Shown here in pieces: positions 53,934 through 61,256 of a stretch of DNA of 64,000 nucleotides. Each line of letters starts with the position of its first letter. Positions within the stretch are counted from its first letter, which is position 1. Source of the stretch: Methanobacteriota archaeon (GTDB lineage Archaea; Undinarchaeota; Undinarchaeia; Undinarchaeales; Undinarchaeaceae); assembly GCA_002687935.1 (NCBI GenBank), contig NZBN01000002.1:38484-102483 (forward strand). Direction: 5' to 3'. Below the pieces are notes generated by a model. The model was not told the DNA's origin, made no database searches, and saw only the letters and a list, made by a program, of their open reading frames with translations. Position numbers and translations under genes: made by a program.

Positions 53934-55091
53934 CTATTTAAATAATAGTCCTCTCCAGCCTTTAGGTCTTGGAGGAGCTACCGGAGCCGGCTCTTCAGGC
54001 TTAGAAAGCTCGTGCATCTCATTGACGAACTTAGCCATAATAAGTGCCAATATTTTATGATGAACTGCATAAACTCGCCATGGTTCGAATACCAACCTTA
54101 CAAATTCCTTTATTTTTGGTGAGAGTTCATCTATCTCATCATCTTCAAATTCATTAATAACCTGATTCCTCTTCCTTCCAGGTCTCTTTGTTGCATTTTG
54201 AACAAGTGAAGTTATTGTATCTGCATCATGATCTTTTATAGTATCCCATACTCTGTTAACAGTGGCTAAGTAAGTATCTACATCAGTAATAACATCCTTA
54301 GTTGGCTGAATCATGTCAGATATTACACCCTCTACCTTGCTGAAGTTCTCCCTATCCTGAGCTGTTCTGAAAGACCTTTCATTTGAGGCAATGTTGTGAT
54401 ACCAGTGATGTAGATGAGCCCCAACCGTATCCACAGTTGTTATCCTATCTCCCCCTCTTGGAACCCGTCCAGCTGTAGTTTCAACAAAATTTCCTATATC
54501 CTCTGCATGTGCCTGGTTGAAAACTGCCCACAAATATGCGTGTAAAGCACGTGTAAATCTTTTGACTTTTTCAATATCTTCTTGTTTTCCACGTGTTTTT
54601 CTAAGCTTAAATTGAAGGTCTTTGTTATCTGACAATTTATTGTAAATTTCCTGAACTAAATTCAACATACGTACTTCTTCATACATTTCCGGATCATAAA
54701 TCGGAGGCTCTTCATTAGTTACATCCTCTTTGATGAAAGGCCAGATATGATCTTTGAAAGCACGCGTCAACTCTATCTTATTCCAAAGAGCATTCGGAAC
54801 TTTTGCAATTGCTTTTGAATGGTATAAAGCAAGTGCCCAGGTATTGTCAAAACTGAGTTTCCAGTTCTCATTCACTTCATTAAAATCCTTTTCACTGAAC
54901 CAGTCGATAATCTGCTCTTCATCTTGGCCAGACACATTGGTATATTCAAGGTCTCCAAGTCCATCTACTTTTCCTGCAACAGCTTCAAATAAAGGAGTCT
55001 TAGAGTCGCTTTTACTTAACTTGTCAAATTTTCGCGTCAAGTTATTTTCTATTTTTACTCTTGCATCACGAGAAACTCTTGTATCAGCCAT
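53934..55091 (-). CDS. Hypothetical protein, paralog A of an unrecognised domain
   Basis: 385-aa ORF similar over its length to the C-terminal part of the adjacent ORF. Confidence 0.8.
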   Translation of the reverse strand: MADTRVSRDARVKIENNLTRKFDKLSKSDSKTPLFEAVAGKVDGLGDLEYTNVSGQDEEQIIDWFSEKDFNEVNENWKLSFDNTWALALYHSKAIAKVPNALWNKIELTRAFKDHIWPFIKEDVTNEEPPIYDPEMYEEVRMLNLVQEIYNKLSDNKDLQFKLRKTRGKQEDIEKVKRFTRALHAYLWAVFNQAHAEDIGNFVETTAGRVPRGGDRITTVDTVGAHLHHWYHNIASNERSFRTAQDRENFSKVEGVISDMIQPTKDVITDVDTYLATVNRVWDTIKDHDADTITSLVQNATKRPGRKRNQVINEFEDDEIDELSPKIKEFVRLVFEPWRVYAVHHKILALIMAKFVNEMHELSKPEEPAPVAPPRPKGWRGLLFK

Positions 55092-55125
55092 AGTAGTTTT
55101 TTATGAGGAATATAGTATTTAAATA

Positions 55126-56733
55126 TTATGCACCTTCACGCGAGAGCACAGACATATGCATCATGAACTTAATCATCAGAACTGCAAGAATTTTTTCATA
55201 AGCGACAAGCTCTATCCAGCGCCTGAACAAAACATTGGAAAAATTGTGAACATCCTTAACAAGTACATCGAGCTCTTCGTCCGTAAACATATAGTCTATT
55301 TCATTACCCGTTCTTCCAGGTCGAGAGCTTGCATCTTTTATTATTTGTTTAATGGTTTCATCATCGTGCTCGGCGACCACTTTAGCAAGATTTAGTACAA
55401 CTCTTGAATACTTGTCAACATCAGTTTTTACTGATGACAGATCAGAAGACTGGTCAGATATTGTTCCTCTGACTCTAGAAAAGTTTTTCAAACTCAGAGC
55501 ATTCCTGAATGCTCTTTCATTTGCATCGATTGTATGATACCAGCGATGTAGATGAGCTCCAATTGTATCTACAGTAGTTATTCTGTCTCCTCGCGGAACC
55601 CGTCCATGTGTCGCCTCTACAAAATCTCCAATATCCTGTGCGTGTGCTCGTATGAAAACATCCCAGAGGTAAGATTGGAGAGCGTGTGTGAATTTTGGAT
55701 AAAAGACACTCGGTTTATTATTAAAAATGTCTTTTTTAGTCTTAATTTTATCATAAGTCCCACGCACCTCATGCTTGTTATAGACTTTTAGCATTTGCTC
55801 TATGTTTTTAATATCGACAGCTTCTGGTTCATATATTGGTTTCTTCTTATTAAGCACATCCTCTTTGATGAAGGGCCAGATGTTATCTTTGAAAGCCCGA
55901 GTAAGTTCTATTTTATCCCATAAATCATCAGGTACTTTTGCAATCGCTTTAGAATAATATAGAGAAAACGCCCACAAATAAGGAAATTCCCTAGTCTTAG
56001 TGAAGCCTCTGACACTTGACCTCGCACGTCTTGCCTTCCTTCCAATCTGCCAAGCCTCATCAATTTCTTCAAAGTCTTTTTCAATAAAATGTAGAGAGAT
56101 ATCCTGATCGTCTTTATTAAAAACATTCCTATAGTTGAGATAAAGTTTTTCATCTGAATTATCACAAGAACCCCTGACGAGTTCAAACAAAGGATTTTTA
56201 TTTTGCCCATTTAAGGAATTCCATTTTACATTTACATAATTCTCAACTTTTACAAGATTATCATAATCAAGAAAGGCTGCATCATACCTGACAGCTCCTC
56301 TTTCTGCTGGAACCTCAGGTATTGCATCAGCTGGAACAGGAACCTCGTCATCTTCTCCAGCATCGTCATCTTCTCCAGCAAGGGGGATTTCAGGTGCTCC
56401 TCCAGGATCTCTGCGCCTTGCACGCCACCTTCCAATTCCACCAAGTCCCTTTTTCCCTAAAAGTAAAAGTAAAAGTACTGCAGCAATAAGCAAAATAATG
56501 CCCATTCCTCCGCCAGCCCCTCCAGCTCCGCCTCCGCCAGCGCCGGCAGAAACTCCTCCGCCTCCGCCGCCACCGGAGCTTATGGAGCCTATACCTGCGC
56601 CTATAGCAGAATAAATACCAATATCAAAGCCTTTATCCACTGCGAAAATTAGACCGCCAACAACAAGAACTATTATAGTTACCTTGATTCCAAGTTTAAT
56701 CCTCTTTTTTGCATCTTCTGCAGCGGAACTCAT
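55126..56733 (-). CDS. Hypothetical membrane-anchored protein, paralog B (TM - Gly-rich loop - TM - acidic linker - shared domain)
   Basis: Two hydrophobic helices flanking SSGGGGGGGVSAGAGGGGAGGAGGG; then the shared domain. Confidence 0.8.
   Translation of the reverse strand: MSSAAEDAKKRIKLGIKVTIIVLVVGGLIFAVDKGFDIGIYSAIGAGIGSISSGGGGGGGVSAGAGGGGAGGAGGGMGIILLIAAVLLLLLLGKKGLGGIGRWRARRRDPGGAPEIPLAGEDDDAGEDDEVPVPADAIPEVPAERGAVRYDAAFLDYDNLVKVENYVNVKWNSLNGQNKNPLFELVRGSCDNSDEKLYLNYRNVFNKDDQDISLHFIEKDFEEIDEAWQIGRKARRARSSVRGFTKTREFPYLWAFSLYYSKAIAKVPDDLWDKIELTRAFKDNIWPFIKEDVLNKKKPIYEPEAVDIKNIEQMLKVYNKHEVRGTYDKIKTKKDIFNNKPSVFYPKFTHALQSYLWDVFIRAHAQDIGDFVEATHGRVPRGDRITTVDTIGAHLHRWYHTIDANERAFRNALSLKNFSRVRGTISDQSSDLSSVKTDVDKYSRVVLNLAKVVAEHDDETIKQIIKDASSRPGRTGNEIDYMFTDEELDVLVKDVHNFSNVLFRRWIELVAYEKILAVLMIKFMMHMSVLSREGA
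56345..56380. repeat. Perfect 18-bp tandem duplication in acidic linker
   Basis: TCGTCATCTTCTCCAGCA x2, encoding AGEDDD/AGEDDE on the - strand. Confidence 0.95.
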
Positions 56734-56811: not shown

Positions 56812-59091
56812 ATGACAGAACGCTATTTACTTACTTGTGCGCTTCCATACGCGAACGGGCCTCTGCACGTGGGCCACATTAGGTCCACTTATCTCCCTGG
56901 AGACGTATACGCGCGCTACCTTCGACTTAGAGGAAAGGAATCACTATTTATCTGCTCTACAGACGAGCACGGAACACCAATAACGGTCAGCGCGGAAAAG
57001 GAGGGAATAAGCCCGATTAAGATTGCCGAAAAGTACCACAAGATAATAAAGGGAAATTTTGAGGGATTAAATATAAAATTTGACCATTTTTCAAGGACCA
57101 GTAGCCCAACAAACATTAAGAAGGCACAGGAATTCTTCACGGAAGCGGAGAAACGCGGACATATTTACACAAAAGAAGTTGACCAGTACTACTGCGAGCA
57201 CTGCTCAAGATTTCTTCCGGACCGCTATGTTGAAGGAGAATGCCCCGACTGCGGCGCAGAGGGCGCAAGAGGAGACCACTGTGAAAAATGTGCACAAGCT
57301 CTGAGCGAACTTGTCAAGCCAAGATGTATGATATGTAGCAGCAGGCCCGAAATGAAGAAGACTGAGCACTGGTTTTTCAAGCTTACTTCATTCAAGGGCG
57401 AGCTTTCTAAATTCTTAGACAGTGACGAGCTTCCGGACAATGTAAAAAACTATGCAGTAACATGGCTGGAAAAGTTGGAAGATTGGTGTATTACAAGAGA
57501 TATGAACTGGGGAGTTCCTGTACCTGTAAAGAACAACAAAGGAAAGGTCCTCTACGTCTGGTGGGATGCCCCTATCGGCTACATTTCAGCCACAGAAGAG
57601 TGGGGAAAGAAGACAGGGAATGACTGGGAGAAATACTGGACAGACTCAAAAATTGTCCACTTCATTGGAAAGGATATAATATACCATCACGCGCTTTTCT
57701 GGCCGGCGATGCTCAAAGCACACGGAAAATATTCACTGCCATGGACAATACCGGCAGGAGAATACCTAAGCCTTGAAGGTAAGAAAATGTCAACTTCAAG
57801 AAACTGGGTTATATGGATAGATGACTTTCTCAAGGACTATCCCGCAGACTATCTAAGATATTATCTTACTATAAATTCACCGCTGGACAGCGATATGGAC
57901 TTTTCCTGGGATGACTTCCAGGCAAGAATAAACAATGAACTTTCTGATGTTATTGGAAATTTTGTTCACAGAGTTCTCACATTCATAGAAAAATTCTACG
58001 ATGGAAAAGTTCCTGAACAAGCTGAATTAGATGACACAGGCCAGGCAATTATTGAAAAAATACAGAAAACACCAGACAATGCAGCGAAGCATATAGAGAA
58101 ATTCAAGTTTATGGACTCTCTGAAGGAAGTTCTTGCCCTTGCTGCGGCAGGAAATCAGTACCTAAATGAAAAGGCCCCTTGGAAAAACAAGGAAGACGGA
58201 ACTCCTCTAAATCTCTGCGCTTCCGTCGTAAATTCACTTGCAATACAGCTCAGCCCCTTTATGCCTGAAACAGCTCAAAAGATATGGGAACAGTTGGGAA
58301 GAGAAGGACTTGTTGAAGAGCAGGGCTGGGAAAACGCAAAAGACTTACTGGAAGCAGGTCACAGTATTGGAAAGCCGGCGCCTTTGATAGAAAAGGTGGA
58401 AATAGAGGAGAAAGAAGCTGAATTCTCAGGCAAAACAGTTGTTGTAGATAAAGAAATTAAAAAAACAATCGACAGCAAAGAACTTTCAGTGGCTCTTGCG
58501 GAAGTGACTGGTATAAATGTAAAGAGGCGGAGCCGACCTCTTGAAAGAGAAAAGAAGGAAGTTCTCGGAAAGGTGGAGAAAGGTAGAGAAAAGACTATGG
58601 ACTCATACCGCTACCTTCTTGAAGAAAGAGACAGAGGAAGTGAGGGACTTTCATCTGAGAATCTTATTGACTTTGTTAAAGAATCAAAAATGCTTCCGAA
58701 CATAAACACAGTTACAGATATTTACAATATGGAGGCTTTCAAAACAGGACTAATAATGGGAGTCTATGATGCAGAAAGAATTTTGGGCAATGTCAGATTA
58801 AAAGTCACAGACGGAACGGAAAAATTCACACCAATAGGAAGTTCGCGTCCCGCTAAAATAGAGAAGAACGAGTACGTTCTCGCAGATGAGGACGACAATG
58901 TGATAACTCGCTGGCTTACGAAGGAAAACGAGAGAGTGAAGGTTAGTCTGTACACAAGAAATGTAATTGTATGCGTCCAGGGAAATAAAGACCTCCCTCA
59001 AAAAGATATTGAAAAAACCCTTGAAAAAGTCTGCAAGAAGATTGTAGAAGTTGCCGGCGGACGCTACAAAATATTATATCCTAATCAATAA
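56812..59091 (+). CDS. metG: Methionine--tRNA ligase with C-terminal B3/4 domain
   Basis: LPYANGPLHVGH, TDEHG, zinc knuckles, WCITRD, KMSTS; C-terminal ~220 aa has SENL...LPNINTVTDIYN...GVYDAE...EKFTPIG...EYVLADE. Confidence 0.93.
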   Translation: MTERYLLTCALPYANGPLHVGHIRSTYLPGDVYARYLRLRGKESLFICSTDEHGTPITVSAEKEGISPIKIAEKYHKIIKGNFEGLNIKFDHFSRTSSPTNIKKAQEFFTEAEKRGHIYTKEVDQYYCEHCSRFLPDRYVEGECPDCGAEGARGDHCEKCAQALSELVKPRCMICSSRPEMKKTEHWFFKLTSFKGELSKFLDSDELPDNVKNYAVTWLEKLEDWCITRDMNWGVPVPVKNNKGKVLYVWWDAPIGYISATEEWGKKTGNDWEKYWTDSKIVHFIGKDIIYHHALFWPAMLKAHGKYSLPWTIPAGEYLSLEGKKMSTSRNWVIWIDDFLKDYPADYLRYYLTINSPLDSDMDFSWDDFQARINNELSDVIGNFVHRVLTFIEKFYDGKVPEQAELDDTGQAIIEKIQKTPDNAAKHIEKFKFMDSLKEVLALAAAGNQYLNEKAPWKNKEDGTPLNLCASVVNSLAIQLSPFMPETAQKIWEQLGREGLVEEQGWENAKDLLEAGHSIGKPAPLIEKVEIEEKEAEFSGKTVVVDKEIKKTIDSKELSVALAEVTGINVKRRSRPLEREKKEVLGKVEKGREKTMDSYRYLLEERDRGSEGLSSENLIDFVKESKMLPNINTVTDIYNMEAFKTGLIMGVYDAERILGNVRLKVTDGTEKFTPIGSSRPAKIEKNEYVLADEDDNVITRWLTKENERVKVSLYTRNVIVCVQGNKDLPQKDIEKTLEKVCKKIVEVAGGRYKILYPNQ

Positions 59092-59875
59092 CCTGCGGTA
59101 TCATTTTCAAAATGTCTGATGCTATAAAACTATAGCCAAATTGCCTGTAGCACTCATCACCAGCTCTGCCATTTACATATGCCGCATATTGAGCAGCATC
59201 ATAACTTGAAAGACCCTGTGCAAGGAAACCAGCAACGATTCCTGCAAGAACATCACCTGTGCCGCCAACAGTCATTCCGGCATTTCCGCTTTTGTTAAGG
59301 TAAGTCTTTTTTCCGTCAGAGACTATATCACGCGGGGCCTTCAATAAAACGACGCACTTGTTTTCCTTTGCAAAATTAGTAACATTAAGTTTTGTGGCGT
59401 TCTTTCCTGACAGCATCTCAAATTCAAGACGATGGGGAGTAAGAACGACTTCCTTGCCTTTGAGAATAGAAAGGTCATCAAAAATTGCTCTGAGTCCGTC
59501 GGCATCTATAACCAGTGGCTTGTCAACTTCAAGTATAAACTCCTTAGCAGCGGCAAGAGACCTCTCATCGCGACCCAGACCAGGACCAATTACAACGCTA
59601 TTAGCTTTCCTGACAAACTTTTCAAGCTCCTCAACATGCCTGTGCTCAAAAATATTCCCATGTAAAGGCAGTGTAATAAAATCAGGAAGCCAGTTAGCGC
59701 ATACATCTGCAGCCCGATAAGGAGCAGCAATATAAACTATGTCCACTCCGCTACGGAAGGCAGCTTCTCCTGTAAGAGATGGAGCACCAGTATATCGTTC
59801 AGAACCGCCAACTACAAGAACACGTCCATTACTTCCCTTGTGCGAATCTGAATGTCTTTCCAATGAAATCTTCAT
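59081..59875 (-). CDS. nnrD: ADP/ATP-dependent NAD(P)H-hydrate dehydratase
   Basis: HKGSNGRVLVVGGS, IGPGLG, IDADGL, LTPHRLEF, GGTGDVLAG. Confidence 0.93.
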   Translation of the reverse strand: MKISLERHSDSHKGSNGRVLVVGGSERYTGAPSLTGEAAFRSGVDIVYIAAPYRAADVCANWLPDFITLPLHGNIFEHRHVEELEKFVRKANSVVIGPGLGRDERSLAAAKEFILEVDKPLVIDADGLRAIFDDLSILKGKEVVLTPHRLEFEMLSGKNATKLNVTNFAKENKCVVLLKAPRDIVSDGKKTYLNKSGNAGMTVGGTGDVLAGIVAGFLAQGLSSYDAAQYAAYVNGRAGDECYRQFGYSFIASDILKMIPQVID

Positions 59876-60002: not shown

Positions 60003-60086
60003 AGAATTAGTGTTAAGGTACTTAGGAGTCTTATATATTTTTGCTGAGTGAATAAATATATAATTAGATTGGAACAAGTGACTTGC

Positions 60087-61256
60087 ATGATATCAGGGAA
60101 ATATCACTTCACATCAGAATCAGTTACGGAGGGGCATCCGGACAAGCTTTGCGACCAGATTTCAGACGGCGTTTTAGATGCAATTCTTGAGAAGGATTCA
60201 GAAGCAAGAGTGGCTGTTGAAACGATAGCAACGACAGGACTTGTAGTAGTTGCAGGAGAAGTCACTACAAAAGCATATGTAGACATTCAGAATGTTGTAA
60301 GAAAGGTCATAAAAGAGGCAGGCTACGACAAGCTTGGGGAAAGTGGCTTCAACTACGACGATTGCTCGGTTCTGGTTTCACTACACGAGCAAAGTCCAGA
60401 CATATCTCAAGGAGTTACTGCGAACGAAGAAGGAAGTAAAGAACAGGGAGCTGGGGACCAGGGATTAATGTTCGGATATGCAACAAATGAAACCGAAGAA
60501 TTAATGCCACTTCCAATAATACTTTCCCATAAACTCACCAAGAAAATGGCAGAGCTACGAAAAAACGGAGAAATAGAATGGATGAGAACAGATGGAAAGG
60601 CACAAGTTACTATAGAGTATGAAAATGGAAAGGCTCTAAGAGCAGATACAATTGTTGTCTCAACACAGCATTCTAGTGAGGTAGAGTATGCGCAAATAGT
60701 TGAGGAAATTAAAGAAAAGGTTATACAGCCAGTCTGTGGAAAGTGGGTGGATGAAAAAACAAACTATCACATAAATCCGACAGGAGCCTTCATAAAAGGA
60801 GGTCCAGGGGCAGATACAGGACTTACAGGAAGAAAAATTATTGTCGACACATATGGAGGAGTTGGAAGCCATGGAGGAGGATGCTTCTCAGGGAAAGACC
60901 CTTCAAAAGTCGACAGAAGCGCCTCATATATGGCAAGGCATGTGGCAAAGAATATTGTTGCCGCCGGGTTCGCAGATAAGTGTGAAATTCAGATTGCCTA
61001 CGCAATAGGAGTTTCAGAGCCAGTTTCTGTATATATTGATACTTTTGGAACAGGAAAATATACTGAAGCCGAAATAAAAGAGGCAGTTCTAAAGGTTTTT
61101 GATCTGAAACCCGGAGCAATAATAGATTACCTAAATTTGAAAAGACCAATATACAGAAAAACGGCAGCTTATGGACATTTTGGCAGAGAGGAAGCTGAAT
61201 TTACATGGGAGAAAACCGGCAGAGTTGAAGATTTGAAGAAAGCTATCGGCGCCTAG
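60087..61256 (+). CDS. metK: S-adenosylmethionine synthetase, bacterial/eukaryotic type
   Basis: [30 protein letters not shown]...[22 protein letters not shown]. Confidence 0.97.

Follow-up and report, generated by a model that had tools for sequence, protein, structure and literature searches.

A methionyl-tRNA synthetase of Undinarchaeota carries a complete CtdA-type B3/4 domain, a candidate tethered editing module

The textbook methionyl-tRNA synthetase (MetRS) has no separate editing domain, so methionine analogues enter proteins at methionine codons. Some MetRSs end in an OB fold of the Trbp111/EMAP type. Domains of the B3/4 fold are found in phenylalanyl-tRNA synthetase (PheRS), in its beta subunit, where they act as a cis-editing module on Tyr- and m-Tyr-tRNA-Phe, and in CtdA, a free-standing deacylase of canavanyl-tRNA(Arg) (CtdA-1; structures 9f7e and 9mkl; PMC10018355, PMC12449066). 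Removal of a methionine analogue from tRNA-Met after transfer has a precedent in AlfB, a free-standing protein of the AlaX family with an unrelated fold, which is encoded within a biosynthetic cluster and deacylates (2S,3R)-hydroxymethionyl-tRNA-Met in trans (PMC13149037). Here we describe a gene, metG, encoding a MetRS of 759 residues that ends in a B3/4 domain of the CtdA type. It lies in a stretch of 64,000 nucleotides (the window; contig NZBN01000002.1, positions 38,484 to 102,483) from a small marine archaeon of the Undinarchaeales (assembly GCA_002687935.1), whose genome, G000, amounts to 667 kb and is 86.6% complete.

The metG gene occupies positions 56812–59091 of the forward strand as a single uninterrupted frame. 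A class Ia catalytic domain at residues 5–389 (56824–57978) is matched by tRNA-synt_1g in Pfam (E 1.7e-160) and contains a HIGH-like motif at residue 19, a KMSKS-like motif at residue 324 and a two-knuckle connective peptide (CP) domain with eight zinc-knuckle cysteines. The helical anticodon-binding domain, with Trp457, follows at residues 400–536 (58009–58419; Pfam Anticodon_3). Core, zinc knuckles and anticodon domain thus resemble those of MetRSs with a C-terminal OB domain, and the protein passes the NCBIfam metG equivalog NF001100 (673.9 against a cut-off of 587). No other full match to MetRS was found in G000, so it is presumably the working enzyme. Beyond a short, charged and faster evolving linker (residues 537–544, 58420–58443) the frame continues with a complete B3/4 domain of 215 residues (545–759, 58444–59088). 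The Pfam match to B3_4 (PF03483) spans residues 613–724 with E 6.6e-16 and scores 58.8 bits, the cut-off being 29.3. An earlier note on this DNA had proposed a MetRS fused to a B3/4 domain. The Pfam match and the CtdA-like model described below bear this out and the motifs that it quoted are present in the translation, but its start for the tail, 58429, corresponds to residue 540 and falls in the linker. Pfam gave no match to tRNA_bind/OB (PF01588) on the 759-residue protein, and neither the domain model nor Foldseek revealed an OB fold at the C-terminus.

The structure of residues 545–759 was predicted with AlphaFold from a 16-row alignment and gave a mean predicted local distance difference test score of 93.6. 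The best Foldseek matches of the model were the CtdA structures 9f7e and 9mkl (E 1.8e-13, TMq 0.74–0.78). Comparison by VIA aligned 208 of the 215 residues with CtdA 9f7e (Z 21.9, root mean square deviation 2.7), as against about 166 residues and a Z of 17.5 or less for PheRS-beta. CtdA ranked first in both programs; TilS-C and LRRC47 share the fold. The helical insert specific to CtdA is present in the model and the inserts of PheRS are absent; in addition the tail has Gly at the position of PheRS His265 and Glu at that of Gly318, and sits on a class I enzyme, although the core fold and an Asn are common to both. The modelled tail is thus a whole standalone CtdA-type (COG3382-like) B3/4 protein rather than a fragment of PheRS-beta. 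Its identity to CtdA is only 15–20% and, whereas CtdA is free-standing, it is fused to MetRS.

Residue equivalences to CtdA were taken from a sequence alignment to 9f7e, in which the register at C166 is uncertain by one residue. D636, Y638 and N639 (58717–58728) correspond to D102, Y104 and N105, which lie close to the ester in CtdA. G650-V651-Y652 (58759–58767) correspond to G116, G117 and E118, so that an acid on the pocket floor has become Tyr. The segment from I698 to E705 (58903–58926) corresponds to C166 to Q173. In it C166 aligns with I698 (or T699), R168 and W169 are kept as R700 and W701, R172 has become Lys and Q173 is replaced by E705, a change which is tolerated in CtdA (C. perfringens). 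C721 and Q723 (58972–58980) stand at the positions of I189 and E191, and the QGN signature that marks MetRS-linked domains starts at the latter residue, Q723. E118 and E191, the acids deep in the pocket of CtdA, are thought to hold the guanidinium group and each is essential to canavanine editing (bioRxiv 2024.11.30.626143), while Y104, N105 and G116 are required for activity (PMC12449066; bioRxiv 2024.11.30.626143). The tail therefore keeps the ester-proximal Tyr-Asn pair and the Gly but has neither the acidic floor nor C166, and by its sequence it lies outside the canavanine-specific CtdA-1 group though it is built alike. The most conserved columns are those of the pocket and the ester-proximal residues.

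Relatives were gathered by searching 1.84 billion representatives with profiles and from three genome surveys. The pocket was compared over 63 MetRS-fused rows, some of them redundant and related by kinship and hence not independent, and 16 rows fused to lysyl-tRNA synthetase (LysRS), four fragments being assigned to a partner by their position in the tree. Among the MetRS fusions Y104 is kept in 62/63, N105 in 63/63 and G116 in 59/63. At the position of E118, 62 of the 63 have His or Tyr. At that of E191, 54/63 of them have Gln, versus Asp or Glu in 16/16 LysRS fusions. Four single genomes contain both a MetRS and a class I LysRS (LysRS-I) fusion with differing pockets: G075 (L094/L121), G080 (L099/L123), G131 (L098/L120) and G046 (L103/L122). 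These alignments indicate that the B3/4 pocket tracks the partner synthetase. An acidic floor with LysRS and a neutral polar one with MetRS is what would be expected of an amino-acid pocket matched to the partner, which a mere tRNA-binding appendage would not need. In trees all 40 sampled MetRS-linked domains fall in one clade (support 96/94) on at least three core lineages, separate from CtdA-1-like proteins with a CRRW motif, from LysRS-fused domains and from the archaeal free-standing proteins that were sampled; the latter are probably CtdA-2, the sample containing no published CtdA-2 reference sequences.

Other fusions were seen in the same searches. Class I LysRS fused to a B3/4 domain whose pocket is of the canonical CtdA-1-like kind occurs in the phylum of genome G037 (L113–L115, L117, L118, L120–L123), often in genomes that also have a MetRS fusion. 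Further fusions each have a pocket of their own (L188:1486-3621, L183, L189, P0132, P0105, P0155), with the B3/4 domain N-terminal to ProRS in L188, N-terminal to TyrRS in P0132 and in another case C-terminal to class II LysRS; L183 and L189, judged by eye, appear to be a second B3/4 copy ending PheRS-beta. Two proteins, P0119 and P0120, combine a MetRS-like anticodon domain with a MetRS-clade B3/4 domain in the absence of a Pfam match to the catalytic domain, and may possibly represent a deacylase targeted to tRNA-Met on a degenerate MetRS.

The fusion was found in 8/17 Undinarchaeota genomes. Besides G000 these are its two congeners, in one of which a contig end splits the fusion, every one of the three f4 genomes, one of family f3 (G004) and one of f7 (G014). 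The fused frame is intact in G002, G004, G005, G008, G011 and G014, and 16 database clusters share the same set of Pfam domains. Beyond this phylum it is present in 17/101 genomes of the phylum of G037 and in 8/201 Nanobdellota. A broad sample of 351 archaea contained five clear fusions, in G000 and four genomes of the phylum of G037, and none outside the three phyla named. The architecture is thus patchy but recurrent in DPANN. We found no paper describing a MetRS-B3/4 fusion, although subscription journals were outside our coverage and this is not proof of absence; a search within the text of the CtdA papers found no mention of MetRS fusions. The architecture is, however, not unique to this organism. 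Ratios of nonsynonymous to synonymous substitution (dN/dS, Nei-Gojobori) were 0.08–0.16 for the domain, 0.04–0.07 for the core and 0.17–0.34 for the linker region (residues 501–556), the values for f4 pairs being rough as dS is near saturation there. Purifying selection therefore extends across the junction of core and tail. The fusion is real and selected and apparently unpublished, and its function is predicted from sequence.

The domain has a history distinct from that of the enzyme that carries it. The B3/4 domains of the order form one clade that includes G004 (95/88). The cores of G000, f4, f5 and f2 share a two-knuckle clade (support 100), whereas those of G004, P0012, G014 and P0014 have one knuckle and form a distant clade (support 100, branch 0.87). 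Core monophyly was rejected by the approximately unbiased (AU) test (p 2.4e-58; LG+G4, quick tree, with G038 omitted as misframed). Identity to the protein described here is 34–39% for the one-knuckle cores versus 47–53% for their B3/4 domains, and fused genes of both kinds all lie at the same locus near nnrD. A third core lineage, in Nanoarchaeia (L073, P0016), bears a sister domain. Given that the domains form one clade, the cores two distant clades and the locus is shared, the sequences argue that the synthetase core was swapped in place at least once while the tail was retained; the trees are unrooted and show the swap without its direction. The position of fused P0010 as sister to the f5 cores (100) suggests that the tail was lost in f5 and f2 rather than never gained, although the test did not reject one clade comprising the fused two-knuckle cores (p 0.105). 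Besides its two-knuckle enzyme, genome G003 has a second MetRS with one knuckle (C29, L089), a frame of 474 residues on a contig of 4.9 kb. This may be core replacement caught in the act, or contamination.

We consider it probable that the enzyme functions as a MetRS and that its tethered domain is a deacylase which clears a neutral methionine mimic from tRNA-Met. MetRS would charge tRNA-Met, now and then with a neutral unbranched mimic of methionine. The flexibly linked domain would then capture the aminoacylated CCA end, either in cis or on released tRNA, and the ester would be hydrolysed by the Tyr-Asn and Gly site common to CtdA, through the water-assisted mechanism that has been suggested for B3/4 domains (PMC12449066). 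The Tyr/Gln floor and the nearby Cys may accept the mimic and largely spare methionine. Candidate mimics, at a guess, are compounds of the methionine sulfoxide or sulfoximine type, S-nitroso-homocysteine, escaped homocysteine or a homoserine ether. Because the floor is polar (Tyr/His and Gln), a polar or oxidised mimic would be favoured over norleucine. The editing role on tRNA-Met put forward in the earlier note is thus the best reading of the kept Tyr-Asn and Gly and the partner-dependent pocket, while the purely hydrophobic norleucine that it listed would fit less well. More broadly, and with somewhat less confidence, we lean towards regarding the MetRS-linked B3/4 domains as a third family of the CtdA fold, dedicated to post-transfer proofreading, be it of a natural methionine mimic or of methionine on the wrong tRNA, and kept through core exchange. 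Parallel families with different pockets would, within the same cells, serve LysRS and further ‘non-editing’ synthetases.

Several observations weigh against editing on tRNA-Met. The MetRSs that have been studied clear homocysteine before transfer and edit only in the synthetic site (PMC7373986). E118, E191 and C166 of CtdA are not conserved in the tail and several basic residues of the rim (K86, R87, R90, R167) are lost. Relatives of families f2, f5 and f6 carry a bare MetRS of about 530 residues, no such domain being found there, and since these close relatives live without it the domain is dispensable. Among about 11 free-standing members of the clade with readable context, one is beside metG, two are beside glutamine synthetase/GOGAT genes and one is beside leuS. 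The hits were also gathered with profiles derived from MetRS, which favours the clade pattern. As regards the free-standing genes, a split form was seen in which the member follows a metG by 31 bp (L075). The neighbours of others (L151/L152, i.e. P0059 and P0055; L156, L078 and L170) possibly hint at a substrate and comprise glutamine synthetase/GOGAT clusters (twice), a YbaK/ProX and GNAT pair, a peptide deformylase fragment and leuS. The adjacency to glutamine synthetase, seen twice, did not recur in two relatives, and around 12 free-standing loci no Met/SAM riboswitch or T-box reached the gathering score.

Since the genome is metagenome-assembled, the fusion might be an assembly chimera or a chance read-through of adjacent genes. 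This is already refuted: four families have the intact fusion in independently assembled genomes, it recurs in 16 protein clusters, and the junction is under purifying selection. The tail might instead be a non-catalytic appendage that binds tRNA or dimerises, doing the job of the Trbp111/EMAP OB domain in the manner of the B3/4-related domains of TilS or LRRC47. The tail does occupy the usual position of the OB fold, PF01588 was not found in G000, G001 or G002 (75–87% complete), the fold is common to TilS-C and LRRC47 and the canavanine-binding residues are lost. The earlier note's description of the domain as standing instead of the OB fold is true of this protein, but a functional replacement does not hold: P0032 and P0050 carry both domains in one MetRS, sister families have neither on theirs, and the fused genomes G004, G011 and G014 have a separate PF01588 match. 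The domain is also not strongly basic (41 Lys and Arg versus 37 Asp and Glu), its conservation is strongest in the pocket and ester-proximal columns and the pocket floor varies with the partner synthetase, all of which make an appendage unlikely.

If the domain is a deacylase, its target could be another aminoacyl-tRNA, for example one with a Gln-, Leu- or Ile-like error, and the fusion to MetRS could serve co-expression only. This would suit the free-standing members, most of which are not beside metG and two of which occur with YbaK/ProX editing domains in addition to the glutamine synthetase/GOGAT and leuS cases above, and CtdA itself works in trans (PMC10018355). However, wherever the His/Tyr and QGN pocket was seen in a synthetase fusion the partner is MetRS, with three or more core lineages represented, whereas LysRS, TyrRS, ProRS and PheRS fusions have other pockets. 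Such a consistent choice of MetRS would not be expected of random hitch-hiking, and we regard this explanation as quite unlikely. The domain could also strip methionine from other tRNAs mischarged by MetRS, above all tRNA-Ile(UAU), which is used for AUA in these archaea lacking TiaS. In G000 neither TiaS nor TilS was matched, the tRNA-Ile(UAU) gene contains an intron and AUA is the commonest Ile codon, and all placeable archaeal fusions, including the five in the broad sample, are in phyla where TiaS (PF08489) is nearly never found (1/17 Undinarchaeota, 1/101 in the phylum of G037, 0/201 Nanobdellota). Most TiaS-less genomes nevertheless lack the domain (fusions in about 17/101 and 8/201), so that TiaS loss is not predictive, a bacterium bearing TilS has a free-standing member of the clade (L159/G650) and the overlap of lineages is confounded by kinship. 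Removal of methionine from tRNA-Ile is therefore very doubtful as the role of the domain. A test of co-occurrence with TiaS was uninformative as TiaS is nearly absent from all three phyla searched.

The preferred reading remains clearance of a methionine mimic from tRNA-Met. Two other explanations for the domain were rejected. Compensation for PheRS is ruled out as the genome has a PheRS-beta that retains a B3/4 region of its own, and the supply of homocysteine does not discriminate since S-adenosylhomocysteine hydrolase is found in 16/17 genomes, fused or not. The PheRS-beta gene is split over the contig ends G000:C2:172689-173315 and C7:147630-148370, and C2 and C7 probably join. The tRNA-Ile(UAU) gene with its intron is at G000:C4:27882-27985(-). 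Another tRNA, with a bacterial-initiator-like body and a GAU anticodon, is at G000:C5:14011-14085. It lies at the end of a contig of 14 kb on which the open reading frames look phage-like by eye, so that this contig may be phage DNA binned together with the genome.

Around metG in the window, nnrD, for NAD(P)H-hydrate dehydratase (59081–59875, reverse strand), is convergent with metG and overlaps its stop codon; its proximity to metG is a conserved locus marker in Undinarchaeota. MetK, S-adenosylmethionine synthetase (60048–61256, forward strand), is of the bacterial/eukaryotic type (TIGR01034, 572.9 bits) and not of the archaeal type, and is near several Undinarchaeales metG genes, including those of family f4 and G004. 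On the reverse strand at 53934–56733 are two paralogous-looking open reading frames of 385 and 535 residues without a significant Pfam match, upstream of a frame of 320 residues, NurA-like by eye, and a HerA/DUF87 ATPase. In relatives the slot immediately upstream of metG is occupied by variable, membrane-anchored-looking proteins. A promoter and terminator scan gave nothing usable.

The link between pocket and partner, Tyr/His and Gln with MetRS and an acid with LysRS, allows substrates to be predicted, and sister genomes with and without the domain, whose cores are 59–66% identical to this MetRS, provide a ready comparison. The domain is also a possible tool for cleaner production of recombinant proteins. 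An editing function would give a role to a branch of the CtdA family that is as yet uncharacterised. If true, a MetRS with an editing domain would alter the textbook picture of this enzyme and would point to a methionine mimic met by small, host-dependent archaea.
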